64,000 nt of DNA from Bdellovibrionales bacterium (GTDB lineage Bacteria; Bdellovibrionota; Bdellovibrionia; Bdellovibrionales; UBA1609). Below the pieces are notes generated by a model, which saw only the letters and a list, made by a program, of their open reading frames with translations, had not been told where the DNA came from and made no database searches. Position 1 is the first letter of the stretch. Every line of letters starts with the position of its first letter. Location of the stretch: NCBI GenBank assembly GCA_965197855.1, contig OZ240230.1:64153-128152 (forward strand), read 5' to 3'. Of this stretch, positions 1,579 through 48,467 are shown one piece after another. The position numbers were made by a program, and so were the translations under genes.

Positions 1579-1637
1579 AAAGACTTCCTTGTTATTATGT
1601 TTCTATCATAGTCAGTTTTCAAGATGAGAACAAGTCC

Positions 1638-2675
1638 CTATTGGACGGAGGCATCCTCATTGATATTATAGGAGATTTCACGGGCTTCTCCCTTTTCGTT
1701 TTCCACAACGACAGAGAATTGACTGTCGGCTCGAAATTGTTGAAAGAGTTTTTGGGCTTCCATGTTGTCATTGACCTTTTCACCATTGACGGAAACCAGC
1801 ATATCTCCTTTAAGGAAGCCTAAGCTTCCAAAAATACTTCCATCTTCAATCCATGTAAAAGTATGCCCTAATATTTTACCATCTGTGCCATATTGTGGTT
1901 CGACTCTAGCTTGTTGCAAGATGTCAGGAAGTTGCTGTAAATATTCATTAAGGGAGGAGCGAGCGACAGAATATCGATTATTGTCTAATTGGGAAATACC
2001 TTTGTGATTGGGCGTTTTTTTCTCTGGGGGTTTAATTGGTTCATCTTTGTTTGTTATTTTTGATTCTTTTGAAAAACTAATCAATGACTCTTCCTTGGGA
2101 ATTTCTAAATGTTCCAATTGGTTGTTGAGTAAATTAACAAATATAACTTTTCTTCTTTGCACCTGTGTGACTCTGGCTTTGTTGTCAATTGTATCTCCGA
2201 CAAAGTAAGAATTTGTCTCCCCGGAGGAAGTTACTTGAATGGAAGCCATGGATCTTTTGGGATTAAAATTTTCAATAGTTCCCAGTAATTTGAAAGGCAG
2301 TCCTGTTTTTTTGGATTCACCGATGATTGTGAGTTCTTGCTTTTTTTCCAGTTCTTTAAGGGGAGGGGGAATGGGACCGCTATGGAAAATATTTACTGTA
2401 TGTATAAAATTTGAAGAAGTAGATGAATTTTTTTTGAATGGAAGAGTTTTTGGTTTTTGAAGTGTAATGTCATTTTTTGGAAGCAAGGCAGACCTGATAA
2501 ATAAAATAACAAGGTCTGCTAGGGCTAAAGTAATTAAAAAAGTCAGTATCCAGCGGCTGTATTTAAAAAAAAAAGGAGGAATTTTTTTTAAAATAGTGTT
2601 GAAATCCATTTTTTGGAATTGTTTCCAAAGAAAGTTCTTAGATTGGTGTACAAAATTTAATATTAACTGTTTCAA
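1638..2675 (-). CDS. gspC: GspC-like T2SS inner-membrane component (N-terminal TM helix plus C-terminal PDZ-like domain)
   Basis: 345-aa ORF with TM segment WILTFLITLALADLVILFI and a C-terminal PDZ-like stretch FGSLGFLKGDMLVSVNGEKVNDNMEAQKLF. It sits immediately upstream of gspD on the same strand, the canonical gspC-gspD order. Confidence 0.55.
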   Translation of the reverse strand: MKQLILNFVHQSKNFLWKQFQKMDFNTILKKIPPFFFKYSRWILTFLITLALADLVILFIRSALLPKNDITLQKPKTLPFKKNSSTSSNFIHTVNIFHSGPIPPPLKELEKKQELTIIGESKKTGLPFKLLGTIENFNPKRSMASIQVTSSGETNSYFVGDTIDNKARVTQVQRRKVIFVNLLNNQLEHLEIPKEESLISFSKESKITNKDEPIKPPEKKTPNHKGISQLDNNRYSVARSSLNEYLQQLPDILQQARVEPQYGTDGKILGHTFTWIEDGSIFGSLGFLKGDMLVSVNGEKVNDNMEAQKLFQQFRADSQFSVVVENEKGEAREISYNINEDASVQ

Positions 2676-11300: not shown

Positions 11301-12272
11301 ATGAGTCAGCAAAAGAATTGGTATGATTTTCTCTCTTCCATCAGTCAGAATATTATGGTGGCTGTAAATATCTTGATACTGTTGTTTATTCTGGGTGGAT
11401 GCATGGTTTTTTGTTCCGCCTTTGTTGGCAAATCTTCTTTTTCCTCTATTCGTGAGAGGGTTCCTCAGGATTCTATTTTAGTTCTCAGGTTAGAGGGCGT
11501 CATTATTGATTCATCAGAATTTTTGGAAGATCTTCATGAATATATAGGAGATAAAAAAATTAAAGGAGTGTTGATTCGTGTGAACTCTCCGGGAGGAACT
11601 ACATCAGCCAGTCAGGAGATTTACAAAGAAATTCATCGTTTGAAAGCCTTATATAAGAAACCTATTGTTGTTTCTATGAGTTCTCTTGGAGCCAGTGGAG
11701 CTTTTTATATTTCAATGGCAGGGGATAAAATTGTGGCCAATGAGTCCACTTTAATGGGATCTATTGGTGTTGTGATTTATCTCACTAATTTAGAGAGGTT
11801 ATATGAATGGGCTAAAGTAGAAAATTATGTTTTAAAAACAGGGGAGTTTAAAGATGCAGGCTCTCAATTTCGCCCTTTGACCAATAGGGAGAGGGATTTG
11901 TTTCAAGATTTGATGGATCAATTTTTGAATCATTTCAAAGAAGTTATTATTAAAGATAGAAAACTGTCTAACGAGCTTGTAGAGGAATTTGCAGATGGAC
12001 GTGTTTTTTCAGGAGAAACAGGATTGCTTCAAGGATTTATTGATCAGACGGGCACCTACTATGAAGCTTTGAATCTCATTGGGGAGATGACAGGTTTGGG
12101 AGCGGATCCTGAAATTTTTGAACCCATTAAAAAAGTGGATCGTTGGGTGGAATTATTAAATGCCTCTTTAAAATCACTCTTCCCGTGGTTTCAACAATCT
12201 ATTTTTGTTCCACAGGAATTAAAAGCCCGCCCTCTTTATCTATTGCCTGAGACTATTGGTCTTTCAAAATGA
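11301..12272 (+). CDS. sppA: Signal peptide peptidase SppA (36K type, S49 family)
   Basis: 323 aa with an N-terminal TM helix and S49 motifs IRVNSPGGT and SLGASGAFYIS. Confidence 0.85.
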   Translation: MSQQKNWYDFLSSISQNIMVAVNILILLFILGGCMVFCSAFVGKSSFSSIRERVPQDSILVLRLEGVIIDSSEFLEDLHEYIGDKKIKGVLIRVNSPGGTTSASQEIYKEIHRLKALYKKPIVVSMSSLGASGAFYISMAGDKIVANESTLMGSIGVVIYLTNLERLYEWAKVENYVLKTGEFKDAGSQFRPLTNRERDLFQDLMDQFLNHFKEVIIKDRKLSNELVEEFADGRVFSGETGLLQGFIDQTGTYYEALNLIGEMTGLGADPEIFEPIKKVDRWVELLNASLKSLFPWFQQSIFVPQELKARPLYLLPETIGLSK

Positions 12273-13009
12273 GGCAGAGTTATTCAGTGGGGTTCCCTGT
12301 TGTTTCTCCTTTTGTTAAAGCTTTAGTTATTACAAATGTTGTAGCTTGGTTTGTCTTGGTTTTATTGCTTCAGCAATTTTTTTTGGATTCTCCTTATGTA
12401 TTTCAATTTTTAGGTTTGGTTCCCGCCTCATTTTTAAAGGGATACTTATGGCAGTCTTTTACTTACATGTTTATTCATGCATCTGGTATTTTTCATATTT
12501 TATTTAATATGTTGATTCTATGGATGTTCGGCTCAGAGCTGGAAAGACTTTGGGGGTCGCGTTTTTTTCTAACCTACTACCTTACTTGTGGAGTAGGAGC
12601 GGCTTTCATCTATTGTCTTGTTTTAATGTGTGTGGCTTTTTTTACAGACGTGCATTTAACAGGGGTTCCTGTAGTGGGCTCTTCAGGAGCTATCTTTGGA
12701 TTGATGGTGGCTTATGGCCTTATTTTTAAAGATCGCATTTTGTATGTCATGATGATTTTTCCAATGAAAGCGCGCACTTTTATTTATTTTCTTGCAGGTA
12801 TTGAAATTTTAAGTGTCTTAAGCTCTGGATTGGGAGGCCCTGTAGCTAACTTAGCACACTTGGGAGGATTGGTAACAGGGGTGCTTTTTTTGGTTTCTTG
12901 GAAAAACTGGCATAGCGTTTCATCTTGGATCAAAAGAAAAAAACCTCATCGCCTGCGTGTGATTCATTCAGATGATACGGATGAGAAAAGTAATAGGCGC
13001 TGGCACTGA
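12269..13009 (+). CDS. Rhomboid-family intramembrane serine protease
   Basis: 246 aa, polytopic. The catalytic GxSG reads VVGSSGAIFGL, and the His-bearing helix reads AHLGGLVTG. There is a 4-nt overlap with sppA. Confidence 0.85.
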   Translation: MRQSYSVGFPVVSPFVKALVITNVVAWFVLVLLLQQFFLDSPYVFQFLGLVPASFLKGYLWQSFTYMFIHASGIFHILFNMLILWMFGSELERLWGSRFFLTYYLTCGVGAAFIYCLVLMCVAFFTDVHLTGVPVVGSSGAIFGLMVAYGLIFKDRILYVMMIFPMKARTFIYFLAGIEILSVLSSGLGGPVANLAHLGGLVTGVLFLVSWKNWHSVSSWIKRKKPHRLRVIHSDDTDEKSNRRWH

Positions 13010-17420: not shown

Positions 17421-18596
17421 TTATTGAGATGAAGTTTTGGATTTTTCTAAATTGTAAATTTTCTCAAGAGTGGTATGCACAGCACTAGGTATGATCTTTT
17501 TTCCATTTACAAATAGAGCAGGAGTTCCTTGAATTTTTAGTTTTCGCCCTTCTGAAATTTGTTTGAAAACAGCTGTTGAGGTTTCCTTCGATTCTACACA
17601 GTGTTGGATATCCGGAACTTGCCATTGATTGAGTTGGTTTTGAATTTGTCTTTTTATCTCTTCAACATTTTGTCTGAGTTGAACCCAATTCTCTTGATGA
17701 GAAAAAATAAAGTTTTGCAGTTCGAGTTTTTTTGTTGTGGAACAAAAAACAGCTTTGGACAAATAACAGGAAGCGCTGTTGGATTCTTCTTTTTCCTGAC
17801 AGCCCTTTGGGTTTAATGGAAAGTGCATGTATTCCAAACGTATACCCGGATATGCTTTTTGAAATGTTTGTAAAACCTTATAAACGCGCTGGCAGTGAGG
17901 ACATAAAAAATCAACAAACTCAGTAACGGTTAAAATGGCTTGGGGGCGCTGGGGGCCGGAGGATAAGTAATTTGACTTTGAGGATGTGTATTGAATATCT
18001 GCTTGCCTCCAATCTATAAAATTAGACAGAGCCATGGATTTTTGAGCAGGGTAAAGTTGAAGACTCCAGCCATGCAGAAGTAGAGTTAAAACTCCTGTCG
18101 AAAGGGCAATGATACTCAATACTTGAATGTCAGGTTTAATTCCCACAAAAGTGACAAGTTGGGTTTTGGACAGTCCTCTCTTAAGGGGCCATAAAACCAG
18201 AAAAGATAAAATATAACAAACAGTGCAAAGAGGACAGAGAGTATTGAGGATTGCAATAGAAATCACAAGCATACATAGAGAGCTTAGTGCGGAGAGTACG
18301 GCGACTCTCCAAACCCACGAGGACCAAATGTTTTCCAGCCATCTCCATTGAAGTAAAATGAGGGTGATGAGGCAAAATGCATTGAGAGCTATGGCAAAGT
18401 GAGAGATAGGTATGCCAAAAATCTCTGAAAAAGCAGAGGTCAGGGCTTGGTCGCAGTTCCATGTAGACCCTATTTCACATAGATTAAGAAAAGAGGAATC
18501 TGCCTTAAGGGAATAGGAACGTAAAGATAGATAGAGCTGTACGGCTATAGAAAAGCCAAATAAAATAAGGCTTGGAATAAGAAATCTTTTTTTCAT
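17421..18596 (-). CDS. VKOR-family oxidoreductase fused to a thioredoxin/DsbA-like domain (periplasmic disulfide formation)
   Basis: 391 aa. The N-terminal half is polytopic, with a loop Cys pair (CEIGSTWNC) and the membrane CxxC (LCPLCTVC). The C-terminal half is soluble, with the thioredoxin-fold CxxC (FLCPHCQ). Confidence 0.7.
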   Translation of the reverse strand: MKKRFLIPSLILFGFSIAVQLYLSLRSYSLKADSSFLNLCEIGSTWNCDQALTSAFSEIFGIPISHFAIALNAFCLITLILLQWRWLENIWSSWVWRVAVLSALSSLCMLVISIAILNTLCPLCTVCYILSFLVLWPLKRGLSKTQLVTFVGIKPDIQVLSIIALSTGVLTLLLHGWSLQLYPAQKSMALSNFIDWRQADIQYTSSKSNYLSSGPQRPQAILTVTEFVDFLCPHCQRVYKVLQTFQKAYPGIRLEYMHFPLNPKGCQEKEESNSASCYLSKAVFCSTTKKLELQNFIFSHQENWVQLRQNVEEIKRQIQNQLNQWQVPDIQHCVESKETSTAVFKQISEGRKLKIQGTPALFVNGKKIIPSAVHTTLEKIYNLEKSKTSSQ

Positions 18597-24250: not shown

Positions 24251-26098
24251 ATGGATTTTAAAGATACGAGAAGGTATATGTTTCGATTCAGAAGTTACAT
24301 AGGCTCCAAAAAAGGAAGCCTTGTTTTGTCTTTAGTTGCTTCAGCTACTGTAGCGGCAACTATTGTAGCCACTCATCAGGTGGCGCAACGTTTTGCCAGT
24401 GGAGCTGTAGGAGCTTTCAATCAACAGCAAGCTTATGTACTCGCCCAAAAATCTCTGGCTGTCGCGGGCCTCATGGTCAATAGAAACGTCATTCTTTGCT
24501 CGAATATACCAAAGGGGGCGGGAGGTAGAGCAGTTGGCTGTAATTGGAAAGAACCTTTAGCGGATGATAGTTTAGCAAGAGAACTTTATAATTCTTTAAA
24601 ACTAGATACTACATGGTTTAATGTGGGGAATAATATTGATAATAATAACCATGATGCTTATGCTCAATATTATCTAACACTTAAAAATCCTAAAGAGAAC
24701 TACCTTGGTTCTGTTTTTAAAAATGCGGAAGTGACCTGGGCTTTAAGGAGTTTAAAAGATACGAACCTTCGTTCTATTTCCGGGGCTTTCAGCAAAGGGT
24801 ATACTTGTCGAAATGTAAATACTTTTGATGTGATTGAGGAAGGTTATTGTGACTTAATGGATGAAGATAGATCAGATGAAGAAAAGTTCTCGGGCATGTT
24901 GAGCAACCTCGATAGCCATCTTTTAAGTGATGAAAATAAAAAATGTAGAACAGTAGACACCACTAGTGATAATAAGATTGATAAAGATGATGATGTTAAC
25001 GATTCAAGGAATGATGATAGTGTTTGCGATTATTATGCGCATTCGGATGGGGACACTGCGATTGTGTTTATCAGTGTCAAGGTGCCTTATCAAGTGTCAG
25101 ATGCTGAAGAAGAGGGATCCAAAAATTTAATTGTAAATGCGGCCATTCGAAGACCTATGTCTATTATTAAAACTCAGATTAAAGAGGATTCTTCTATGTG
25201 TCCTGTTAGCTGTATAATAGCCAAGCGCACGAATATGGGCTCTTCAAATGTTGATTTTCCGGAGTGTGCAGGTTTTGCTTCCGGCAATCAAAATGGAGAA
25301 CAATATTTTTCGGATAATATTCATACTGTTGAAACCAAACTGAAGCTTAAAAATTATGGACCGGGTGTTTTATATGGCATTAGCTTATTAAAAGAGGATA
25401 TTGATCCCAGAACAGGTCTTCTTTTAGGAAGAAGTATGGTGAGTTTCCAAGATTCAGATCCTTCTTCTCTTGCAGATACTCCTTTAGAACCGGCTCATTT
25501 AACAACAAACCCACCGGATGTTGAAGAGGGGGTGAGAGTGCTTGCACACCATACTCCTTGTTATTCTTCCAACTTTTACAAACCAAATCTTCAACGTATA
25601 ACCTGTGATTGTGAGCTGAATCCTCCTGATCCTCCTGATCCCACCACAGGTTCCAAAAATACTGCAAATGGAGTGATTTGCATGAAGGGAACATCCGTTT
25701 GTGCCGGCAAAAATATTTTTGTCAGTAATGTCCCAGGTGTCTTGCAGGATGATTCTACAACGCAGGACGCTCGCAACAGTTTAAGTGGTTGTTTTCATGC
25801 TCCGGGTACATTGGAAGATCTTCCAACTCTTTCCAATGCTGTAGTTACTGCATTTGAAAAACCATGTATAGACGCAACAGACTGTCAGTTTACTCGTATT
25901 GATAATGATCAGATTAGCACTACAAAAGAATCATGGTGTGGAAATGATTATGTCGGAAATGACCCTTCTACAAAACCTACAGGAAGAGAACTTCGCCCTA
26001 CAGACGAAACACAAGTGGCGTTTCCTGACCCTGTGGAATCGACGGTTTTTTCAGCGGCTAACCAAGCTGATATACCTTTAACTACACCTAGCCCTTAA
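24251..26098 (+). CDS. Large secreted/anchored Cys-containing protein with a PilX_N-like (minor-pilin-like) N-terminus; operon gene 1
   Basis: 615-aa ORF. The N-terminus KKGSLVLSLVASATVAATIVATHQVAQRF...QQQAYVLAQKSLAVAG resembles the hydrophobic helix plus A..AE.G pattern of PilX/GspK-type N-termini, but it lacks Glu+5. An AAGG lies 3-4 nt upstream of the ATG at 24278 (MFRFRSY), which is the more likely start. The rest is D/N/S/T-rich with many Cys and a PPDPPDP tract. Confidence 0.6.
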   Translation: MDFKDTRRYMFRFRSYIGSKKGSLVLSLVASATVAATIVATHQVAQRFASGAVGAFNQQQAYVLAQKSLAVAGLMVNRNVILCSNIPKGAGGRAVGCNWKEPLADDSLARELYNSLKLDTTWFNVGNNIDNNNHDAYAQYYLTLKNPKENYLGSVFKNAEVTWALRSLKDTNLRSISGAFSKGYTCRNVNTFDVIEEGYCDLMDEDRSDEEKFSGMLSNLDSHLLSDENKKCRTVDTTSDNKIDKDDDVNDSRNDDSVCDYYAHSDGDTAIVFISVKVPYQVSDAEEEGSKNLIVNAAIRRPMSIIKTQIKEDSSMCPVSCIIAKRTNMGSSNVDFPECAGFASGNQNGEQYFSDNIHTVETKLKLKNYGPGVLYGISLLKEDIDPRTGLLLGRSMVSFQDSDPSSLADTPLEPAHLTTNPPDVEEGVRVLAHHTPCYSSNFYKPNLQRITCDCELNPPDPPDPTTGSKNTANGVICMKGTSVCAGKNIFVSNVPGVLQDDSTTQDARNSLSGCFHAPGTLEDLPTLSNAVVTAFEKPCIDATDCQFTRIDNDQISTTKESWCGNDYVGNDPSTKPTGRELRPTDETQVAFPDPVESTVFSAANQADIPLTTPSP

Positions 26099-26116
26099 GG
26101 AACTTGGAGAAAGGAT

Positions 26117-29100
26117 ATGAAAGAGATTTTATGGATGAAAAAGATTAGAAATATTTTTATAATTTTTTTATTTTTGTTTGAGTTTTCTGTATTTTCAGTA
26201 CCTGGAATTAATTCGACCGCAATTTGTCGAGCTATATTCAATAGAGTCGGTATGTCATGCAATCAAATAAGTTATACATTTGATCCACACTTGAAATGTC
26301 TATGTGATGGGAATGAGGTAAATAATAACCCCACTTCTTCCTGTCCGTCAGGATCAACTTATGTGAAAAGACCCATTCCTATTACTTCTTCTTATAGTAT
26401 TAGTTGTGATTTCAAATCCTATCATAGGGGTAAGGACACTCATGAATCTGCATATCCATCATCTACGGATAGAAGTGAACCCCTACGTAGTTGTAAGGCT
26501 AATTTGAATGTAGAAAAAAGTCTTTTATCAAACTCAATATATTGTGGCCAACATACAGGAACTAATGTGCCTTTAACGCTTCAGACAGTTTGTCCTTATA
26601 ATGATTTACAACAATGTAAAGATGAGTTGATAAATATGATTGAGGGGCGTGTGACATTCAAACCTGGTGAAGTAGTAAGCAGGAATAGTAGTTGCTGTAA
26701 AAAGCAATGGAATCACTGTACTTTTGCAACTAATTATTATCGGAATAATGGATCCCTTGTGGATAATATTTGTACTAAAAAACTGTATGATAGAACAACG
26801 AACCTTCCAGTACATGATTTATTTATTCCTAATAATAAGCTAGATCGTATTGTATTAGCTTCAGAGAACGGGCCGTTTGCAGATATGCAATGTATTTCAG
26901 ATAATATTAAATATGAAGATATGTGCGTATGTAATAATGGTAATTATGAATTTGAGTTAGGGCAAGACTTTACTTGTGAATGCTGTGGGGGAGTGGATAG
27001 GGATCCAAATACTGGAAATTGTCTTCCTCCTCCTCCTGGATCTCCTTGTTGTAATATTCCTGTTGGTACATCAAATTTTATAGGAACGGAGATTAATCCC
27101 CCAATTACAGCTCCTGGATCCTGTCGTTGTAAGTGTCCTAATGCCGGTATGGAACAGACTAGTTTTCTAGTTTCAAATACTGCAACAGCCTGTCCGACTA
27201 CCCCTCCAGCAGAGTGTATCATTAATGATAAATGTCCTGATGAGCCTAATTGGAACACCTCTGATCCAACGAATTCACCCATACATCCTTTTGTGACATC
27301 AAAGCCAGGACAAATAAATAATGCAGATAGGTGTAAAAATATTGGTGGATTATTTGTAAATACAGGAGTGGGATTTTGTGAGATGGATGCAATTTGTGAA
27401 CCAGATGTTGATGATATCGCATGCTCTTCTGGGACAGAAGAAACTATTCATGGTAAATGTCAAGAGGTAGGAGTAATGCAGAAAGTATGTCTGTATGGGA
27501 GTCACATTACTCCAGGTGATGGTAATAGTAACGATGACTGCCCGGATGGCTGGATAGAGGAAAAGGTTTATGGTCAACATACAGTATGTATGAGCATAGA
27601 GAGTGCTATAATACGTGGTACAATAGCCATGGTTATTACTCCTCCTGCTTCCTCTGAGATAACAGCTCCTCCTTGTCAGGGCAGGCTTATCAGATTTCCT
27701 TATGTAAAGTTAGATACTGCTAATCCTTACCCACCCTGCAGTCCCGGTAAAGAGAAGATAACACTAGATCCCCTATATTCTTCACTTGTGGTAGCATCAA
27801 GGGAAGTATGTAGTGATCCTATTTCTAGCAATGGAATTCCTAATATTATACCGGGTTCATATATTTGTAATATAGGAGCTCCGAGTTCTCTGAATGATAG
27901 CTGTGAGTGTAAAACTTCAAAACCTGGGCAGGTTTGTCCTGCCACACACGATAGAACAAGTGACAGTATGGGATTAGGCAGTTGTGATTGTCTTGATTCC
28001 ACTTGGACTAACAACTCAGGTACTTGCTCTAAAACTCCTTCTGGCTCTGCTGGTCTTACTTTATATACTAACTATTGGCAGAGTACAGGATCGAAAATAA
28101 CCCCGGCCAGTCTCAATCCTATATATGCACACATGCCAGAACCTCCAGGTCCTGCTACATATGCAGAGGCTATAGCAGATAATTGGGGTTGTTTTTCGGT
28201 CCCACCTTCTGATGTAATGGGGCTACCAGGATTACCTTGGATTGGGAATCCTCAACCAGCTTATACCTGTTGGAAAGATACAAAGTCGTGTCCGGATGGA
28301 GGGACATACAATGTCGGCCCACCAGAAGTGTGCGAGATGCCTTGTACTCAGCAAAATGATCCGATTAATTGCAGATGTGTGAAAGACATTACCAGCTGTG
28401 AATGTGACACAGGTGGAGGTTGGTTCGCTCATGGCAGTAAATGTAGGAAACAAGCTAATAATCCTTCTCCTAGATTATGTACTTGTGAGTGTTATTCGCC
28501 TTCGCAAGACCTAAATATGAATTTTTCCCCTGGAGATTTGCTCACGAAGAGGATGTATGAAGCAATCAGCAATGACATTCTAGCAAATCCAACAAACCCA
28601 ACGATTTGTACTGAGGATACCTCAGGTGGGGACTGTGATCCAGTGGATTCTTGTTGTCATCAAGGGGTATGTCATGCTTCCTGTCCCGTTATTACACCTG
28701 ATAACGTGTGTTGCAAAAATTGCCTTGATGGAAGTCCAATACCAGCACCTCCAGGTGGTTGTTGCCCCAATGGAACGGCTATTGCTGATTTAAAGAATTG
28801 CTCATCAGGAGTTCATATTGGGGGCAATCCTATGGGGATTGATATAGCCTTTGGCTCCAATAATTCCGCCTCTATTTATTCAGTTTATTCTACAGGCTCT
28901 ATGGACAGACCGGATTATATTTGTTGGATGAATGATCCTAATGGAAGCTCTACCAGAGTGCAAAAAAGAGACCTGCTTTGCCCTCCTCAAGAGGACTGTG
29001 GTGGAGGGGCTAGAGATGTCAGTACACAACAATGGTGTCAGTGCCAGGGTTTGAATGCTTCCGATGAATTATTTAATGTAGATAATACCTACTGTGAATA

Positions 29101-29227
29101 CGCGGCTAGAGATCCTATGAGGTTTGAAGATGGGATTATCAAAGGGGATCTGCCTTCTTCAAGACAAAATGATAAATATGAAACAGATATTAGAATTTTC
29201 AAACAAACCCCTATTATCACACCCTAG
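26117..29227 (+). CDS. Extremely cysteine-rich secreted protein (1036 aa), unknown family; operon gene 2
   Basis: Signal peptide-like N-terminus IFIIFLFLFEFSVFSVPG. My manual count gives about 78 Cys (7-8 percent), many in CxC, CC or CxCxC clusters (KCLCDG, DMCVCNNG, FTCECCGG, GSCRCKCP, SCECK, SCDCL, NCRCV, SCECD, LCTCEC, WCQCQG). It is P/G/T/S/N-rich. The SD-like ggagaaagga lies ahead of the ATG, 18 nt after the gene 1 stop. Confidence 0.75.
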   Translation: MKEILWMKKIRNIFIIFLFLFEFSVFSVPGINSTAICRAIFNRVGMSCNQISYTFDPHLKCLCDGNEVNNNPTSSCPSGSTYVKRPIPITSSYSISCDFKSYHRGKDTHESAYPSSTDRSEPLRSCKANLNVEKSLLSNSIYCGQHTGTNVPLTLQTVCPYNDLQQCKDELINMIEGRVTFKPGEVVSRNSSCCKKQWNHCTFATNYYRNNGSLVDNICTKKLYDRTTNLPVHDLFIPNNKLDRIVLASENGPFADMQCISDNIKYEDMCVCNNGNYEFELGQDFTCECCGGVDRDPNTGNCLPPPPGSPCCNIPVGTSNFIGTEINPPITAPGSCRCKCPNAGMEQTSFLVSNTATACPTTPPAECIINDKCPDEPNWNTSDPTNSPIHPFVTSKPGQINNADRCKNIGGLFVNTGVGFCEMDAICEPDVDDIACSSGTEETIHGKCQEVGVMQKVCLYGSHITPGDGNSNDDCPDGWIEEKVYGQHTVCMSIESAIIRGTIAMVITPPASSEITAPPCQGRLIRFPYVKLDTANPYPPCSPGKEKITLDPLYSSLVVASREVCSDPISSNGIPNIIPGSYICNIGAPSSLNDSCECKTSKPGQVCPATHDRTSDSMGLGSCDCLDSTWTNNSGTCSKTPSGSAGLTLYTNYWQSTGSKITPASLNPIYAHMPEPPGPATYAEAIADNWGCFSVPPSDVMGLPGLPWIGNPQPAYTCWKDTKSCPDGGTYNVGPPEVCEMPCTQQNDPINCRCVKDITSCECDTGGGWFAHGSKCRKQANNPSPRLCTCECYSPSQDLNMNFSPGDLLTKRMYEAISNDILANPTNPTICTEDTSGGDCDPVDSCCHQGVCHASCPVITPDNVCCKNCLDGSPIPAPPGGCCPNGTAIADLKNCSSGVHIGGNPMGIDIAFGSNNSASIYSVYSTGSMDRPDYICWMNDPNGSSTRVQKRDLLCPPQEDCGGGARDVSTQQWCQCQGLNASDELFNVDNTYCEYAARDPMRFEDGIIKGDLPSSRQNDKYETDIRIFKQTPIITP

Positions 29228-29236
29228 GAGAGCATT

Positions 29237-32200
29237 TTGAATTATTTTAAAAGATCAAATCGTGGTTTCTCCTTAATAGGCTCTCTTCTTGGGTTTTCTC
29301 TTTTAGGATTATCCACAGTAGGGCTTGCCACATATATGGGAAGTTTTGAACAGGTAAAAGTTACTTATTCTCGTCAATCCAATGTTAACTTTATGCATTC
29401 CGAGCTTTTGGGAAGTATGGGAAAAATTATAACGATGACTAAAACAGAGGTCACAAGTCCTAATGCTACAAATTCTCATTTAAAAAAAGAGTTTGGTTTG
29501 TGTGCAGTGGTAAAACAAGATAATCAATACGACTCTGTTAAAGATAAAGCCATTTGTGCCATTACACTGACAGGCTCTGCTATTGTTTCTCCTTCTGGAG
29601 CAAATGCCTATAATGAAGATGATCGTTGGAGTTACTTTATTCAAGAAGGTAAAAACTGGCAGGTCTCTTCAGGGAATTGTACAAATGGCAGTAATGGTTT
29701 TGTAGGGGACTTTAGTGAAGATGAATTTAATAAATGTGTGAAGTATATTGGGAAAACTCAGACAGATGATATTTTTGCTCGCCTTAGTATGGAGCCACAA
29801 AGGCTTCCCTCTTTTAACAAAATTGACAATTCAGATAGTATTCCTGTGGATGAATTGGTTTTTAAATTACATTCTGTTATTTCTGTTCCTCGTGAGTTAG
29901 AAGTTGGCAATATAGTTTTTTCATTAAGTAAAAGTGAAAAATATCTATGGAGTACAGAGGTCTTGGACTGTCATATTTGTGATAGTGGTCAATGTAAGCT
30001 AGCTCGATTTTCTACAGCCTCTCAAGGTACAGCCGCAAGACATAGTCGAATCTGTTATCACTCTCCTTATAAAATGAAAGAGAAAAAAGATGCTTTGGAA
30101 ATTATTGTGGAAAAAATTCCTCCAGAATTTGAAGAAAGTGGAAATCGAATTGTTGCAAGTACGACTCAACAGGATTACTCTTCTTCATGCCGCTCCAATT
30201 TATTTCGATGTGGAAATGCTGTAGATGTAAAAGATTTTGATCCGGCTCTTAAGTTTCGCTTTTTATTAAATTATGACCAGCCGGAAGATTCTTATATTAA
30301 TAAAATGGGTTTAAAAATTACTGATGGCTCGGATGACAAAGAGTATGGAACTTTATTTGTATCTGCAGATCAACAAGCTCGTGTAGGTCGAACTCAAGGT
30401 GGTGTTGACAGTGAGTTTGTTGATAAGGATTCAACAACAGCTAATAAACACTTTTGGCCTTTAAGAGCAGGTACAAATGAGATTACATCTTTTATGGCGG
30501 ACCAGGATTCTTCTGATTCAATTTGTACAGATATTTGTTCCGGCTCCAGCCCTTCTTACTATCCGGAATTAACTGTTGAGTATGGAGGCTCTCAGTGTGA
30601 TAGCGGTAACTGTACGGAATCGCTGCTATCTGCTTCATCTCTTAAAATTGCATGCTTTCAATGTAATATGAAAAGTTGTCATCGCTATGGTATAAAAACT
30701 CATACGGGTGTAGATTCTAGTAATAACTATGTCGCTAGAAGTAGTGAACCTCTAGATGGAATTGTTCCTGAATGTCTTATTGAAGATAATGTGAGTGTAA
30801 GTGCGGATACAACTTTAATTACAAGTGGTGTGACTGATGCTGTAAATAATAAATGTTTACAAACAACTAGCGGAAATAATTTAAAGGCTGTTACTTGTAC
30901 CAATACCTCTGGAGGTGGAGACCCTGTATTTATACAAGGTACGACTAAATCAGCTTGTTTTTTAGAAGGGCAGACTAAAATTTTGGAGGGAGGCTATACT
31001 GGCGGTTTGGATGCTCGAAATAACTGTCTACAGGTCTTATATGAAGAACAGCTTATTGGACAAGGTACAGATGGAGTTTGGAGAGAGGGTATTTTGCCTA
31101 ATATAGCTATAGCTTATAATATTCTTCCAGAAGGGGATGGGACAGATCGAGGTGTCAAAGAAGTTTTGGAAGATCAGGAGTTTGGAGGACTCGATCCAAG
31201 CTCAGGTGGAACATATACTTTTAATAATTATGCCAGATTTTCTACATTTTTTGGAGATCATACAGATGTTACTGAGCCAGATGTATTTGTGACTTTTCAA
31301 AGGGATGCTTCCGGAATGTTTCATTCAGGCTGGCATCGTTTCTTAGGGGTTGCAAATAGTGGTACAACTGCAGAAAGAGAGCGCTGGGCTTTTTTCTATA
31401 GAGAGCCTTTTAACAGTATTAATTTTCATGATGTAGGTGGTTTAACAGTATTAAATAATAATGATGGTAGTAAAAATACCGGTGAATTACCTAAAGGTAC
31501 CACCAGAAAAGAATTTTTAGGAAGAGCTCGGCCCTCTCGTCCTGTTTATATTAAAATGGGCAATGATTTTCATGCGGATTATCCAGGTTTAAAGCAATTA
31601 AACGATAATCCTCCGAATCATTATCTGGCTTTAATTCATCACTTGACTTTTAAAGGGATTCGTCCTGTTAAAACTCCTGCAAAAAATAATTATCCTTATC
31701 TATGTAGAAATATAAAAGCCACAACTTATAAAGAGGCTTTTGTGATCACTGTGGCTGAAGGAAGAGATATAAATAATGGGTATCAGAATTGCCGTAATTT
31801 AAACCCTCCTCCTCCTCCTCCTCCTCTAGAGCCTAGTGAAGACTGGTATTTTATTCCTCCGGATTCCAGAGAACTTTGGGTGGCGGCCTTGCAGGCGGTG
31901 GCTCCAAATGCCCTTCGCTATCCTTTTCCTAATCCTTTTAATTTTGCAGATGGTATTCCTTTTTGGAGAGAGCGAAAAAGCGGCGATATGGGTTATGATG
32001 CTAAAAAACGTCAATGGGAGCTTAGCTACAGTTATGCAGATATGTCTTCTGATGATTATTTGTTGTCTGAAAAAAATGATCATCAGTTTTTATTTAAAAA
32101 CAGTGTGGGCAGTCCATCACCTAAACCTTCTGGAACTTTAGCCAGACCTGCCACAGCTTGGATTGGAGGGCTTGCTCCAATTGCGCTAACAGGAGGTAAT

Positions 32201-33823
32201 GCCGGGGTCAGCTGGAGCTGGAAGCCGGATTGGCTGAAGATATTAGGAAATTCTTTTACTCTTGGGTATGATCCTTTGGAGGATACTGCACTTTCACTGC
32301 TTTTTAATGATAGCTTAACTGCTGCTCTAATAGATACTCTTATTGTTGAACTTGAAGATGACACTAACTTTGATAATATCGGTGTTCTTAACTCTAATGG
32401 TCGTGTGATGAGTTTTAAGTCTTTAAGACAGCCTAATAATTTAGGTGAGTTTCAAGATAAGGTTACTAAATTATGTAGATACGATGAAAATGTACAGCAA
32501 TTGGATTTTCATAGAGCTTTAATTATAACAGGAAAGGGTACTAATTGGCCTTCTGGAAATGACTGTAGTGGTTTATCTTCTTCCAATTCAGAAAGCTTTT
32601 TAGCAGATGATCTAGACAGTATTTATTTTGAAATACCTTCCACTCCGGGTAACAGCAACTTGAAAAATCTAGCAGGAGATGATTTTGTAGAAGTTCGACA
32701 GGGGATTCGTACTTTAATTCCACTTTTGGCCTATAAGAAGCAAGGAGCTATGCATGTCCATAATACAGATAAGTTTTGTCGGGCTTGGAAGAGGGAGAAA
32801 AAAAGAAGAGCTGTTGGAAATTGTATTATTGAAAATTATAATGCCGGTACTCTTTCTAAAGGGGGTGTGAATCATGGTTTGCCAGTGACTCAAACTGTCA
32901 GGACTCAGGCTGTATGCCATCCATTAAGTAAAAATTGTGATATTGCTCCTAGTTCTTTCCAAACTCAGCTTACTACCAAACAAGCTGAGCTTTCAACTGC
33001 TCAGTCGCAGTTGGCTACAGCAAACAATAATTTAGCCTCAGCAACCACTACTTGTAATCAAATTTGTCCTGCTTGTGTTACTGTTCCTGACACTGCATTC
33101 ACTTCGTGCCAGCAAGCTTGTTGGAGCTGTCTCAGTGGATGCAGTGGTGATCCCGATCAAGCTGTTTGTGAGAGTGTTTGTAGAGGCGCGATGGTCAACT
33201 GCAGAACTTCGTGTGGCTGTCCAACACCACCCTGTGGTACTACAACAGATTGTTCAGTACGAGATGCTTGTGTAGCTTCTAGAAATGCCGCTTGCAATAG
33301 TAGACCTGGAATACAAGTTCAAATAACATCTCTTACAGATATAATAGATGAATTAGAAAACAATGTAATTCCTTGTATGCAGGCAAATATAGGAAGTATC
33401 ACAAAGGCAAGCTGTATGGCTAATCTCGATAATGTTAATTCACATGCCACAGTTTACTCTCCAGCTTTTGCTTCTTGTCCACAGGCTTCGGCTTTGTCGA
33501 TTGATTTTAAGATATCACATTTAGGTAGTGCGAGCGATAGTAGATGCTGGCGTTTAGATGATTTAAAGCCGAAGTATGAATTTAGCTTTAATGATGGAAC
33601 CTCCAATTTAACTGGTAGAGTTGGTGTATTGGGAGATAGCCAGGCGCTTACAGACTGGGATCACGATCGTAACTGTGGTACAGCATCTACTTCTCTATAT
33701 CCATTACCTGCCGCTTGTGACAACTACTATACTGACTTGATTAATTTACATAATAATCTTTGTAATGATGGGATAGATTATGGTAATCAAACTTGTGAAC
33801 ATAATTATACTGGACCTTTATAA
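29237..33823 (+). CDS. Giant (1528 aa) protein with a prepilin-like N-terminal helix, a long unknown body, a coiled-coil segment and a Cys-rich C-terminus; operon gene 3
   Basis: The TTG start at 29237 is preceded by AGGAG (29226-29230) at 6-nt spacing. That AGGAG overlaps the gene 2 stop (29225-29227). The N-terminus KRSNRG-FSLIGSLLGFSLLGLSTVGLATYM resembles the type IV pilin/pseudopilin class III signal (G|F-x-L-I-x), with Gly instead of Glu at +5. There is a Pro7 run, a C-terminal coiled coil (TQLTTKQAELSTAQSQLATANNNLASA), then a dense Cys region (CNQICPACV...CQQACWSCLSGCSG...CESVCRGAMVNCRTSCGCPTPPCG). Confidence 0.75.
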   Translation: MNYFKRSNRGFSLIGSLLGFSLLGLSTVGLATYMGSFEQVKVTYSRQSNVNFMHSELLGSMGKIITMTKTEVTSPNATNSHLKKEFGLCAVVKQDNQYDSVKDKAICAITLTGSAIVSPSGANAYNEDDRWSYFIQEGKNWQVSSGNCTNGSNGFVGDFSEDEFNKCVKYIGKTQTDDIFARLSMEPQRLPSFNKIDNSDSIPVDELVFKLHSVISVPRELEVGNIVFSLSKSEKYLWSTEVLDCHICDSGQCKLARFSTASQGTAARHSRICYHSPYKMKEKKDALEIIVEKIPPEFEESGNRIVASTTQQDYSSSCRSNLFRCGNAVDVKDFDPALKFRFLLNYDQPEDSYINKMGLKITDGSDDKEYGTLFVSADQQARVGRTQGGVDSEFVDKDSTTANKHFWPLRAGTNEITSFMADQDSSDSICTDICSGSSPSYYPELTVEYGGSQCDSGNCTESLLSASSLKIACFQCNMKSCHRYGIKTHTGVDSSNNYVARSSEPLDGIVPECLIEDNVSVSADTTLITSGVTDAVNNKCLQTTSGNNLKAVTCTNTSGGGDPVFIQGTTKSACFLEGQTKILEGGYTGGLDARNNCLQVLYEEQLIGQGTDGVWREGILPNIAIAYNILPEGDGTDRGVKEVLEDQEFGGLDPSSGGTYTFNNYARFSTFFGDHTDVTEPDVFVTFQRDASGMFHSGWHRFLGVANSGTTAERERWAFFYREPFNSINFHDVGGLTVLNNNDGSKNTGELPKGTTRKEFLGRARPSRPVYIKMGNDFHADYPGLKQLNDNPPNHYLALIHHLTFKGIRPVKTPAKNNYPYLCRNIKATTYKEAFVITVAEGRDINNGYQNCRNLNPPPPPPPLEPSEDWYFIPPDSRELWVAALQAVAPNALRYPFPNPFNFADGIPFWRERKSGDMGYDAKKRQWELSYSYADMSSDDYLLSEKNDHQFLFKNSVGSPSPKPSGTLARPATAWIGGLAPIALTGGNAGVSWSWKPDWLKILGNSFTLGYDPLEDTALSLLFNDSLTAALIDTLIVELEDDTNFDNIGVLNSNGRVMSFKSLRQPNNLGEFQDKVTKLCRYDENVQQLDFHRALIITGKGTNWPSGNDCSGLSSSNSESFLADDLDSIYFEIPSTPGNSNLKNLAGDDFVEVRQGIRTLIPLLAYKKQGAMHVHNTDKFCRAWKREKKRRAVGNCIIENYNAGTLSKGGVNHGLPVTQTVRTQAVCHPLSKNCDIAPSSFQTQLTTKQAELSTAQSQLATANNNLASATTTCNQICPACVTVPDTAFTSCQQACWSCLSGCSGDPDQAVCESVCRGAMVNCRTSCGCPTPPCGTTTDCSVRDACVASRNAACNSRPGIQVQITSLTDIIDELENNVIPCMQANIGSITKASCMANLDNVNSHATVYSPAFASCPQASALSIDFKISHLGSASDSRCWRLDDLKPKYEFSFNDGTSNLTGRVGVLGDSQALTDWDHDRNCGTASTSLYPLPAACDNYYTDLINLHNNLCNDGIDYGNQTCEHNYTGPL
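31805..31825 (+). repeat. (CCT)7 trinucleotide repeat encoding Pro7 inside operon gene 3
   Basis: Read directly as cct x7 at 31805-31825, in frame with the 29237 start (peptide NPPPPPPPLEP). Confidence 0.9.
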
Positions 33824-45638: not shown

Positions 45639-45644
45639 ATCATG

Positions 45645-45733
45645 CGGAGAGAGGGGGATTCGAACCCCCGAGATGGTTTTAGCCATCTACACGCTTTCCA
45701 AGCGTGCGCCTTCAGCCGCTCGGCCATCTCTCC
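45645..45733 (-). tRNA. tRNA-Ser (anticodon GGA)
   Basis: The reverse complement folds by eye into a cloverleaf. Acceptor GGAGAGA/TCTCTCC plus discriminator G; anticodon stem CACGC/GCGTG with loop TTGGAAA (GGA). There is a long variable arm (TAGATGG...CCATCTC), as expected for Ser. T-arm GGGGG-TTCGAAT-CCCCC. No encoded CCA. Confidence 0.9.
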
Positions 45734-46163
45734 TAGTCTGGAAATACATTCAATACCGAGTGTTATGCAAAGCAATAATATCTTTGTATTTTGACAAAAC
45801 TATCTAATATTTGAAAAAATTTCAATAGGAATCACTTTCAAGGATAGAAAGATTAAAAAACCCATATTAGATCAAAGAAATTCCAAGGATTGGAAAATTG
45901 TCCAATCTATTCCCATCCCATCTTCCTCCCTTAAAGAGAAGCTGGAATTTCTTCCATCAAAAGAAGAAAAAATAAGACCCCTTAAACTTATCGACCAAAG
46001 AGATCTAAGTTTTCAGGAATCCACTACAACTGCCAAAGCACCCGCTCCAACTCCCGAACAAAAATCTTCCAGCACTCCTGTTCAACAAACAACAAAACAA
46101 AAATCCAAATCTTCATACTTTGTTCAACAGCTAAAAAAACAAACTATTTATTACAACAAACTC

Positions 46164-48374
46164 TTGAATCACAAAATGAAAGCTTTATCTAATTCGCTCA
46201 CTAAAAAATACCAACATGAACTTCAAGTTTTACAAGATCAAATAGAAGTTCTTCATGAAAAACACATAAAAGAGATCAATCATATTAATCTCAAACATAA
46301 AGCACAAGAGCTTCACCTGCAGGAAACCTATCAGGAAAATGAAGAGCTGATAAAAAATAAACACCATAAAGATGTATGTAAACTCAAAGAAGCTCACCGT
46401 AAAAAAATAACTCAGTTTCATAGTGCAAATCAGAAAAAAATGCGTGTTTTAAGAGAAGCATCTAAAGGAGCAACAACATACGATAATAAGAAACAAATTT
46501 CTAAGTGGCTGAAACATAGAAACCTACTGCAGACAACCATAGGAAGTTTGAAACAGAAATTAGAAGCAAAATCCAGTCAAATCAACACCCTTAAACAGGA
46601 ATTGGATAGTCAATTCCAAAAAATTCAAAATGCTGAACAAATCCACCAAGATCGTATTACAAAAGTGAAAAAAGAGTATGAGGTGAGGGCGCATACTGCA
46701 CATTTGTTACAGCAAACTAAAATGAATCAGTTGCAAAATGAAAATCTTTCTTTAGATAAGTTTAAAGAAAAATATCATGTGTATATTCAAAATCTACAGT
46801 TAAAACATGAATTTAATACTCAGGAAATTAAGAAAAACTTCAGAGCTAAAATGTATGCTTTTCAATTAGCACATAAAAAAGAAATCCAATCTTTAATCCA
46901 GAAATCGTCTGCTCAATCCTCTCAAAAAGACTATGAAGAAAAGATACAAGCGATCCAACAAGACCACACTCAATGTGTAGAAGAGTTGGAGAAAAACTTT
47001 TCTGCTAAATTACATGCACTTCAGCTGAAAAATAAAGCCTCTCTGAATAAAATTAAACAAGACCACTCCTTTAAAAAAATAACTGCTCAGCATAAACAGC
47101 AAATAGCAGAAATAAATAAGCACTATGAAAGTCAAATACGCTGGATGAAGTCTGATTATGAGCAAAATACAGCCCTTATGAAGAAAGACTATGAATCTCA
47201 GATATACCACCTGGAAAGAGAAGAAAATCAAAAAATTAAAGAATTAGAAAAGATTGTTGAAAGCAATGGAAAAGATCAAAAGCTTTATAATGAACTTCAA
47301 AGTAAAGTTGAGAATTATCAACTTCAAGTAAAACAGTTAGAAAATACAATTCAAGACCAATCTGTACAGGAACAAAAATTATTAAAAGAACAAACTCGTT
47401 ATACAGAATTGATAGAAGAACATAAAAATCAAGTCACAGATTTAACAGAGCAAGTTCAAAAGTATCAATCTAACACCGACAATACTCAAGATGATTTTAA
47501 CGTATCCTTAGCTCAGCTTAAAACAAATTATTATAAGGATAAAGTTGACATCAGAAATCAAAGTGAAATTTCTATAAAAAAATTAAAAGCTGAATTTCAT
47601 GCGGATAAACTTTCGTGGATTCAACAGGTTGAAAAAAGGGAATGCCTTTTAAAAGAAACTCATCAAGAAGAGATGACTCAAGTGAAAGCAGATTTTGAAC
47701 AATCTATTCAAAAATTACAAGAATCACAAAATCAAATGGTCCGAAAGTTAAAAGATTCTCACAAAAAAGATATGAAGGAAGTCCGATACAATCTGGAAGA
47801 AGAACTCAAAGACTCTAAAGCTCACTATGAAAAAACTTTAGAAGATTTAGAAGATAATTTTACAAATCGAATAGCAGAGTTAAAAACGTCTCATGAAAAA
47901 CATTTGTATCAATTGAGCAGGGAAATGGAAACTGCTTTAATTGCTGAGAAGAAAAAAAATGAAGAGCTTACTCAACTTTATGACAAGGATACAGTGAATA
48001 TACAAAGAGAACTGTTTTCTTTACAGACACGTTTTAAAACAACTAGTGAAAGTGTGGGTCAATTGACTTCTGAAAATCAAGTATTGTTCACAAGAGTTCA
48101 TAAACTTTTATCTGAGAATCAAACTCTTAAAGATCAATACACTTCAATGCAATTAAATTGGAGTGAAATTAAACAAGAGCTGGAAACTAAAAATAGTCAA
48201 ATTCAATCTCTACAGAAATTAAATCAACATATCAGTCAAACTTTGTTTCAAGTTCGAAAGAAAGCATCAGAAAAAGTTCAAACACCTGTAAAAAAAGACA
48301 GTGTTCAACAGAAACAAACAGGCGGCGAAAAACAAGATGACAGCGATCTTATTTCTGAGCTTCGTTTATATTAG
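46164..48374 (+). CDS. Long coiled-coil protein (K/E/Q-rich), unknown function
   Basis: 736-aa ORF from TTG 46164 (first ATG at 46176), heptad-like and charged almost throughout. The same frame is open with no canonical start codon for 123 further codons upstream (45795-46163). Confidence 0.7.
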   Translation: MNHKMKALSNSLTKKYQHELQVLQDQIEVLHEKHIKEINHINLKHKAQELHLQETYQENEELIKNKHHKDVCKLKEAHRKKITQFHSANQKKMRVLREASKGATTYDNKKQISKWLKHRNLLQTTIGSLKQKLEAKSSQINTLKQELDSQFQKIQNAEQIHQDRITKVKKEYEVRAHTAHLLQQTKMNQLQNENLSLDKFKEKYHVYIQNLQLKHEFNTQEIKKNFRAKMYAFQLAHKKEIQSLIQKSSAQSSQKDYEEKIQAIQQDHTQCVEELEKNFSAKLHALQLKNKASLNKIKQDHSFKKITAQHKQQIAEINKHYESQIRWMKSDYEQNTALMKKDYESQIYHLEREENQKIKELEKIVESNGKDQKLYNELQSKVENYQLQVKQLENTIQDQSVQEQKLLKEQTRYTELIEEHKNQVTDLTEQVQKYQSNTDNTQDDFNVSLAQLKTNYYKDKVDIRNQSEISIKKLKAEFHADKLSWIQQVEKRECLLKETHQEEMTQVKADFEQSIQKLQESQNQMVRKLKDSHKKDMKEVRYNLEEELKDSKAHYEKTLEDLEDNFTNRIAELKTSHEKHLYQLSREMETALIAEKKKNEELTQLYDKDTVNIQRELFSLQTRFKTTSESVGQLTSENQVLFTRVHKLLSENQTLKDQYTSMQLNWSEIKQELETKNSQIQSLQKLNQHISQTLFQVRKKASEKVQTPVKKDSVQQKQTGGEKQDDSDLISELRLY

Positions 48375-48385
48375 TATATCTATAT

Positions 48386-48458
48386 GGGGCTGTAGCTCAG
48401 CTGGGAGAGCGCGACGCTGGCAGTGTCGAGGTCAGGGGTTCGATCCCCCTCAGCTCCA
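48386..48458 (+). tRNA. tRNA-Ala (anticodon GGC)
   Basis: GGGGCTG acceptor (G3:T70 pair present), D-arm GCTC-AGCTGGGA-GAGC and anticodon stem CGACG/TGTCG with loop CTGGCAG (GGC). T-arm AGGGG-TTCGATC-CCCCT and 3' strand CAGCTCC plus A. No encoded CCA. Confidence 0.9.
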
Positions 48459-48467
48459 ATAAAAAAA

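Follow-up and report, generated by a model that had tools for sequence, protein, structure and literature searches.

What kind of protein does a bacterial gene encode when its product of 1036 amino acids carries 78 cysteines? The gene, here called B, lies in a stretch of 64,000 nucleotides (the window) from a Bdellovibrionales bacterium of the GTDB lineage UBA1609 (assembly GCA_965197855.1, contig OZ240230.1, positions 64,153 to 128,152 of the forward strand). We found that B occupies the middle of a conserved operon, A-B-C, and that its product combines a conserved C-terminal domain with a fast-evolving N-terminal part. These two features are of more interest than the number of cysteines. B is probably a surface recognition subunit, a function predicted from its sequence. 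By analogy with known systems, it may be docked on A and C by its C-terminal domain and expose its N-terminal part as a recognition surface, a reading to which we give a probability of roughly 0.4.

A cysteine-rich gene in a conserved operon

The open reading frame (ORF) of B runs intact through 1036 codons from an ATG start to a TAG stop (29225-29227), and a ribosome-binding site of the form GGAG..AAGG (26106-26114) is located 3-11 nt 5' of the ATG. The product contains exactly 78 cysteines, or 7.53% of its residues. A preliminary description, made by a model from the letters and translations of the window, had counted about 78, an even number, at 7-8 percent; the four cysteine-containing strings it quoted are all present (residues 270-287, 623-637, 761-776 and 974-993). 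The gene is real and that observation is confirmed. Among the 38 ORFs of the window that we examined, B has the highest cysteine content. Most ORFs range from 0 to 2.4%, the median is ∼1%, and the runners-up have 4.0%, 3.5% (C), 3.3% (a VKOR-DsbA fusion) and 2.9% (A).

The cysteines of B form 12 CxC motifs, 6 CC pairs and 2 CxCxC clusters (residues 336-340 and 788-792). Comparison with 5000 shuffles of the mature sequence revealed an enrichment of CxC (12 observed vs 5.5 expected, P=0.007) and of CxC followed by the next cysteine 8-18 residues on (6 vs 1.8, P=0.005). CC pairs occur at the level of chance (6 vs 5.9).

The three genes are closely packed: the stop of A and the start of B are separated by 18 nt, the stop of B and the TTG start of C by 9 nt, and a convergent PBP1a gene lies 3' of C. 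Scans for promoters and terminators returned signals at the level of shuffled sequences. Of the 11 loci long enough to be informative, 10 have the order A-B-C, namely the window, L001, L002 (frameshifted), L003, L004, L006, L007, L008 (with a frameshift in B), L009 and L011; L005 is too short to judge. In the remaining locus, L010 (8282-14662), A is directly followed by C with no B between them, so that B may be accessory to the module or may be encoded elsewhere in that genome. The flanking genes are unrelated housekeeping genes that differ from locus to locus.

The operon is known only from a small uncultivated clade of 'Bdellovibrionales', represented by small metagenome-assembled genomes. 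Homologues of C sit on contigs of 1.1-2.1 Mb, one of them with a '_c' suffix that may mark a circular contig, which suggests that the genomes of this clade are small. Given this size (∼1.1-2.1 Mb) and the presence of leucine-rich repeat (LRR)-reprolysin, collagenase and ankyrin genes, these bacteria are therefore probably obligate predators or symbionts. The window also encodes BamA, BamB, TamB and gspC/gspD, and the organism is therefore a Gram-negative (diderm) bacterium. A search of the literature on this lineage found nothing specific.

Predicted export and disulfide pairing of B

The N-terminus of B has the features of a Sec-type signal peptide, with a basic n-region, MKEILWMKKIRN, and a hydrophobic core, IFIIFLFLFEFSVFS. 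In its homologues the corresponding region closes in FA, SA or GA, which resemble signal peptidase I sites. The predicted mature protein has ∼1010 residues.

The B family is tiny. A search of 5.8 billion proteins recovered 3 clusters, and one of 1.84 billion recovered ∼18 representatives, 11 of them at E<1e-30; the homologues include P0002-P0012 and P0018. A second homologue search with an 11-sequence alignment returned the same 3 proteins. Profile searches of genome contigs with a 3-sequence alignment of B, and of metagenome contigs with its C-terminal domain, gave no match. The annotated N-terminal extensions of P0003 and P0008 (see also L002 6040-6150) hold strings such as SCESRNP, MDPCFRRGD and WTPAFAGVT, which look like translated palindromic repeat elements lying 5' of the true start.

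Eight full-length homologues have lengths of 980-1159 amino acids and 7.1-7.9% cysteine. The cysteine spacing, whose conservation the preliminary description had made a touchstone of its reading, is indeed conserved: 56 of the 78 cysteines of B never vary among the eight, and 61 occur in seven or more of them. The numbers of cysteines after the signal peptide are all even in these proteins (78, 82, 76, 90, 76, 80, 74 and 78). Four more distant full-length members have 50, 78 and 72, which are even, and 45, which is odd. The even count noted earlier is meaningful, since it recurs in eight of eight close and three of four distant homologues. With totals from 45 to 90, an even number in 11 of 12 members has a binomial probability of ∼0.003, which argues that essentially every cysteine takes part in a disulfide. 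We infer some 39 disulfides in B; bacterial proteins with that many are rare. It is very likely that B is exported and disulfide-bonded.

A candidate for the formation of these bonds is encoded upstream, at a distance of 5.7 kb from the operon and 7.5 kb from B. The gene product (391 amino acids) joins a VKOR-family membrane domain to a DsbA-like thioredoxin domain. VKOR homologues carry out periplasmic disulfide formation in bacteria without DsbB, and the fusion protein is likely to be the periplasmic disulfide-forming enzyme of this organism. It would serve B as supporting machinery, and its position does not imply dedication to the operon.

CxC, CC and CxCxC are also typical of metal sites, and the cysteines might instead be ligands of metals or cofactors, as in metallothionein-like, zinc-ribbon or Fe-S proteins. 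We regard this as the least likely of the alternatives. The predicted signal peptide directs B to an oxidising compartment, an oxidase of the VKOR-DsbA type is encoded nearby, and the even parity in 11 of 12 members suits pairing. In addition, no His or Cys motif family was matched in Pfam or NCBIfam, and the cysteines are spread over 1000 residues rather than grouped in fours.

Two-part architecture of B

The two parts of B evolve at different speeds. In comparisons with the three closest orthologous loci, the N-terminal ∼850 residues are 38-40% identical, with ∼7 points of this figure contributed by the cysteines themselves, and the C-terminal 150 residues are 60-70% identical. The corresponding values are 59-70% for A and 52-71% for C. 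The N-terminal part of B thus evolves about twice as fast as its partners.

The C-terminal domain is marked by the motifs GGNPxGIDIAF (GGNPxGIDxAF across distant relatives), S(V/I)Y(S/T)xG..RPDY(I/V)C, CPP, CxC and C(E/D)YAxxDP(M/F/L)R, by six invariant cysteines and by a proline within 3 residues of the C-terminus. In the distant relatives P0014, P0015, P0017, P0019 and the B protein of L007 (870 amino acids), only the last ∼150-170 residues are shared with B. Their N-terminal parts consist of different cysteine-rich sequences, some with visibly repeated CxCPxG(S/T) units.

Profile-profile comparison found no domains shared among A, B and C, with a best probability of 1%. That value belongs to a non-significant resemblance (E 0.054) between A residues 172-264 (24764-25042) and B residues 916-998 (28862-29110), in which S-I-S..S-K-G-Y-x-C...C...V-C-D-Y-Y of A is set against S-x-Y-S..G..P-D-Y-I-C...C...Y-C-E-Y-A of B.

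N-termini of the partners A and C

The N-termini are the most conserved parts of A and C. In A, an invariant segment consists of a basic leader, K-G and then S-L-V-L-S-L-V-A-x-G-x-V-A-A-T-I-V-A-T-H-Q; the protein of the window reads K-G / S-L-V-L-S-L-V-A..G-T-V-A-A-T-I-V-A-T-H-Q and continues with an acidic, Asp-rich stretch. The segment of C reads R/K-G / F-S-(L/I/V)-(I/L/V)-G-S-L-L-G-F-S-L-L-G-L-S-T-V-G-L-A-T-Y-M-G-S-F-E. The public annotation of C (P0022, 1495 amino acids) begins at Met34 and leaves out the conserved R-G-F-S segment (29237-29335). The ribosome-binding site at 29226-29231 supports the upstream TTG start.

Among 16-19 homologues, the first 57 residues of C contain 19 invariant columns. 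All 19 proteins begin with a basic leader of 6-20 residues that ends in an invariant glycine and is followed by F(V)-S-(L/I/V)-(I/L/V) and then by an invariant hydrophobic segment rich in Gly and Ser, ...LLGFSLLGLSTVGLATYMGSFE. Gly10 and Ser12 are invariant, and Phe11 is present in at least 90% of the 19 sequences. As read from the sequence, both A and C therefore show the basic leader, glycine and hydrophobic stretch of type IV pilin-like proteins, and their N-termini appear to be organised like a class III (prepilin) signal, with the qualifications given below. The most recurrent Pfam match to the N-terminus of C is N_methyl (PF07963), found in 3 of 16 N-termini with a best score of 13.9 bits vs a cut-off of 21.2. 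A has no N_methyl match, and neither A nor C matches TIGR02532 or any other NCBIfam model. A PDB profile search with the N-terminus of C found no pilin, and TadE (PF07811) was not detected in A, B or C, either in full-length sequences or in N-terminal fragments at E<=10. The pilin-likeness of A and C is a lead, not a result.

The same hydrophobic helices could have a different meaning. A and C might be uncleaved bitopic anchors of the inner membrane and B their periplasmic or outer-membrane partner, the three forming a structural complex that stiffens the cell as a disulfide-cross-linked lattice or a scaffold spanning the envelope, like the chlamydial cysteine-rich outer membrane complex (OmcA/OmcB). 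All three proteins are rich in cysteine (2.9, 7.5 and 3.5% in A, B and C) relative to the window median, the small genomes probably belong to host-dependent bacteria, the window encodes a VKOR-DsbA oxidase, and no pilus genes adjoin the operon. The even parity in 11 of 12 members, however, favours intramolecular pairing over free cysteines available for cross-links, and an N-terminal part that evolves twice as fast as A and C would be unusual for a lattice. B is also absent from the operon of L010, the Pfam families Chlam_OMP3 and Chlam_OMP6 do not match B, and the organism keeps a class A penicillin-binding protein, which indicates a normal peptidoglycan sacculus. We consider such a lattice unlikely.

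Search for EGF-like modules and foreign origin

The preliminary description read the cysteine clusters of B as divergent EGF-like or laminin-EGF modules of eukaryotic type that might mimic the extracellular matrix of a host and might have been acquired horizontally, like the LRR protein nearby. The enrichment of CxC agrees with this reading, and LRR, ankyrin, reprolysin and collagenase genes are present in these genomes. The PROSITE EGF patterns gave one conserved site: the site homologous to residues 761-776 of B fits EGF_2 (PS01186; C-x-C-x2-[GP]-[FYW]-x4-8-C) in 4 of the 8 homologues, while B itself misfits owing to a one-residue insertion. EGF_1 has a single unconserved match in B, at residue 596. 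One match to a short pattern does not make an EGF domain.

The wider searches argue against modules of this kind. Scans of B with hmmscan against Pfam and NCBIfam (E<=0.1) found no family, and those of 7 relatives at E<=1 found nothing above threshold, so that B and these relatives show no profile similarity to the EGF, laminin-EGF or furin-like families. The sole match was a sub-threshold cEGF in one distant member (14.5 bits vs a cut-off of 26.6). A regular expression for the generic six-cysteine EGF spacing had no matches in B or in any of the 8 close homologues, and one in the distant member P0017. The eight-cysteine laminin-EGF signature (PROSITE PS01248) had no matches in 11 family members, and Pfam Laminin_EGF was likewise not found. 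The internal periodicity that the preliminary description had itself set as a test of its claim did not appear: in an hhalign comparison of the B profile with itself, the best off-diagonal probability was 1.3%. A self-BLAST of B recovered the diagonal only and is uninformative on repeats.

The composition and distribution of B point in the same direction. Its GC content at third codon positions (0.265) and synonymous-codon log-likelihood (-1.01) are within the range of neighbouring housekeeping genes. The codon usage is native, and there is therefore no sign of recent horizontal transfer. None of the ∼18 relatives among the 1.84 billion protein representatives is eukaryotic, and every recovered genome context of the family is bacterial. 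We accordingly rejected an array of EGF modules or a recent eukaryotic acquisition; the module reading is already largely refuted, and its probability is very low. What survives of the earlier interpretation is an exported, disulfide-scaffolded protein; EGF modules and mimicry of host matrix are not supported. A host-interaction theme for B is possible in light of the LRR-reprolysin, collagenase and ankyrin genes of these genomes.

Proposed role of B

The proposed role of B combines these features as follows. An oxidase of the VKOR-DsbA type, encoded nearby, would make the ∼39 disulfides of the Sec-exported protein, and B would be a rigid, protease-resistant disulfide scaffold. The prepilin-like helices of A (∼600 amino acids) and C (∼1500 amino acids) would tether both proteins to the inner membrane or to a pilus-like fibre. 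The C-terminal domain of B would dock on the A-C pair, and its variable N-terminal part would form an exposed surface that recognises a ligand of the prey or host. The parts of this scheme differ in strength. That B is a subunit of an A-B-C complex is likely, its role in recognition or adhesion is tentative, and the anchorage of A and C by a pilus-type mechanism is doubtful. A bolder version would make A-B-C an undescribed three-component surface organelle of an ultra-small, Bdellovibrio-type clade, with a prepilin-like stalk of A and C that lacks Glu5 and a diversifying B that sets attachment to prey or host, plugged into the stalk via a new cysteine-knotted docking domain of ∼150 residues. 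This version is speculative and, in our judgement, unlikely.

Several observations weigh against the docked recognition subunit. The mechanism is putative: no homology of B to any known family was found, and we infer the docking role of its C-terminal domain from conservation alone. Relaxed constraint, instead of diversifying selection, could account for the fast evolution of the N-terminal part. Sequence searches with A, B and C in Pfam, NCBIfam, PHROGs and the PDB gave nothing significant. The N-termini of the partners depart from those of canonical prepilins in that Glu5 is missing from both (position +5 is Gly, Ser or Ala), the residue after the glycine in A is Ser and not Phe, and the N_methyl match of C stays below the Pfam cut-off. 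At none of the 11 loci does the operon adjoin a pilus or secretion gene, and the gspC/gspD genes of the window are 22 kb away.

Structure prediction adds to these points. The AlphaFold2 model of B, built from the 11-sequence alignment, has a mean predicted local distance difference test (pLDDT) score of 47.5, with only residues ∼80-280 reaching 70-88. For C, residues 1-700 were modelled at a mean pLDDT of 57.9, with a helix of 43 residues (24-66) and beta-rich domains after it. Foldseek detected no pilin or adhesin at E<=0.001 with either model. Against the PDB, the low-confidence model of B gave nothing (best E 0.66), and that of C gave no pilin in the top 50 (best E 1.9e-3). We discarded the resemblances of the C model to Kir channels, uromodulin and Als adhesins, which are those of a generic helix with a beta-sandwich and have TM-scores of at most ∼0.2 for long alignments. 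Profiles of A, C, B and the C-terminal domain of B also retrieved nothing significant from the PDB. The B family has neither annotation nor a model in Pfam or NCBIfam, and no structure of it has been solved or predicted with confidence.

The novelty of this locus resides in its undescribed family and operon, to which a kind can be assigned only tentatively, and few other lineage-specific features are visible in this uncultivated clade besides A-B-C. If B is a variable recognition subunit of an attachment device, it would provide access to the specificity for host or prey in the lifestyle of the clade, together with a docking domain and binding scaffold that are new and stabilised by disulfides. 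If B is merely a structural envelope protein, it would be of modest interest.

Genomic neighbourhood

The coordinates of the operon, of the parts of its products and of neighbouring genes are collected in Table 1. At the left edge of the window (1-2675), a gspC gene (1638-2675, minus strand; PF11356 and a PDZ domain) precedes a gene for a GspD-type secretin, of which the window includes only the part for the N-terminus. The genome therefore has a type II secretion system, encoded 22 kb from the operon. Genes for secreted metalloproteases are located within 5 kb of A-B-C in four loci and are absent from the others.

These neighbours bear on a further alternative, in which B, alone or with A and C, is released by such a type II system, for example, and acts on prey or host beside the metalloproteases as an effector or toxin complex. 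The Sec signal peptide predicted for B, the gspC and gspD genes, the reprolysin-LRR, reprolysin or M9 collagenase genes close to the operon, and the dense disulfides, which are typical of proteins that survive outside the cell, are all consistent with it. Against it, none of the libraries searched revealed a catalytic or toxin domain, the strictly conserved helices of A and C are better suited to anchoring or assembly than to release, and the protease neighbours are not kept at all loci. We regard release as an effector as improbable, though less so than metal ligation or EGF-like modules.

Downstream of C, one to four copies of a gene for a small PD-(D/E)xK-like protein, with weak matches to NERD, Hjc and DUF8196, are clustered within ∼5 kb. 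Its identity between genomes is 52-68%, although the A and C proteins of the same genomes are only ∼32-59% identical, which suggests that this family is mobile or multicopy.

Three further features of the window were noted. An A-rich stretch (46001-48374; AT skew +0.32, GC 0.31) covers an ORF of 736 amino acids (46164-48374) with a weak apolipoprotein-like match of coiled-coil type, flanked by tRNA-Ser (45644-45733, minus strand) and tRNA-Ala (48385-48459, plus strand). A gene for a rhomboid-family intramembrane protease is found at 12269-13009 (plus strand) and a subtilase (S8) gene at 57144-58457 (minus strand).

Table 1. Positions of the A-B-C operon, of segments of its products and of neighbouring genes
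Feature	Sequence	Position	Strand	Details
Gene A	window	24278-26098	+	606 amino acids from the conserved Met, 18 Cys; ORF opens at 24251
Gene B	window	26117-29227	+	1036 amino acids, 78 Cys; middle gene of the operon; ORF and translation
Predicted Sec-type signal peptide of B, residues 1-27	window	26117-26197	+	read from the sequence and the pre-region alignment
Cysteine-scaffolded N-terminal region of B, residues 28-886	window	26198-28774	+	identity comparison; Cys columns mostly invariant
CECDTGGGWFAHGSKC site of B, residues 761-776	window	28397-28444	+	short pattern match in homologues only
Conserved C-terminal domain of B, residues ∼887-1036	window	28775-29224	+	alignment of relatives
Gene C	window	29237-33823	+	1528 amino acids, 54 Cys; TTG start, ribosome-binding site AGGAGA
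Prepilin-like N-terminal segment of C, residues 1-38	window	29237-29350	+	N-terminal alignment
VKOR-DsbA fusion	window	17421-18596	-	Pfam VKOR 6.8e-15, DSBA 5.2e-14, Thioredoxin_4 4.2e-16
Reprolysin with at least 11 LRRs	window	36109-39567	+	
Reprolysin with at least 11 LRRs	L003	4564-7551	-	
Reprolysin	L002	877-2190	+	
M9 collagenase	L006	2003-4612	+	
PD-(D/E)xK-like gene(s)	window	39924-40493	+	
PD-(D/E)xK-like gene(s)	L006	14841-19545		
PD-(D/E)xK-like gene(s)	L007	15445-19352		
PD-(D/E)xK-like gene(s)	L011	15277-15909		

Comparison with known systems

Among exported disulfide-rich proteins, those with EGF and laminin-EGF modules (PS00022, PS01186, PS01248) resemble B in their extracellular location and in the local arrangement C-x-C...aromatic...C, down to the one conserved site of the family that fits PS01186 in half of the eight homologues. 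B differs in having no profile match, six-cysteine unit or tandem repeat, and in the exclusively bacterial contexts of its family. The chlamydial proteins OmcB and OmcA share with B a setting in small-genome, host-dependent Gram-negatives, as cysteine-rich envelope proteins that are exported and depend on disulfides for their function. They show no homology to B, however, whose even cysteine numbers suggest intramolecular pairing. The organism studied here keeps PBP1a, and B evolves fast and, at one locus, is dispensable.

The closest parallels to a docked recognition subunit come from pilus tips. In Tad/Kil systems, which occur in predatory bacteria including Bdellovibrio, tip complexes are encoded by three-gene clusters away from the machinery genes; they are held together by a bundle of N-terminal helices, and one very large subunit bears a variable domain, of unknown fold, that has been proposed to recognise prey (PMC12075869). 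The likeness of A-B-C to KilL/KilM/KilN or TadE/TadF/TadG extends to each of these points: a cluster of three genes apart from machinery genes, N-terminal helices, a large subunit with a variable domain and a relation to predatory bacteria. The differences are that B has an ordinary signal peptide and not a pilin-like N-terminus, that TadE (PF07811) was not found in A, B or C, that the models of B and C gave no structural match, and that the three proteins are far larger and rich in cysteine.

In PilY1, a conserved C-terminal domain contacts minor pilins (PilX) by beta-strand complementation, and a variable N-terminal domain is adhesive (PMC13190605). B resembles PilY1/PilC as a large, Sec-exported non-pilin encoded among proteins with pilin-like N-termini, and as a protein with a conserved C-terminal part, the putative dock, and a variable N-terminal part that may bind ligands. 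It differs in several respects. Sequence and profile similarity were not detected, and Pfam gave no match of B to the PilY1/PilC beta-propeller, a seven-bladed structure of ∼500 residues with a Ca site (PF05567); the conserved domain of B has only ∼150 residues and six invariant cysteines. B has only two pilin-like partners, both without Glu5 and 10-30 times the size of minor pilins, and the operon never adjoins pil genes. The features that define membership in PilY1 or in the Tad-tip complexes were looked for in A-B-C and not found, and B would be analogous, not homologous, to them. If the proposed role is correct, B would be a further case of the design known from pilus tips, with a conserved dock and a variable head, one that has arisen without homology to them.

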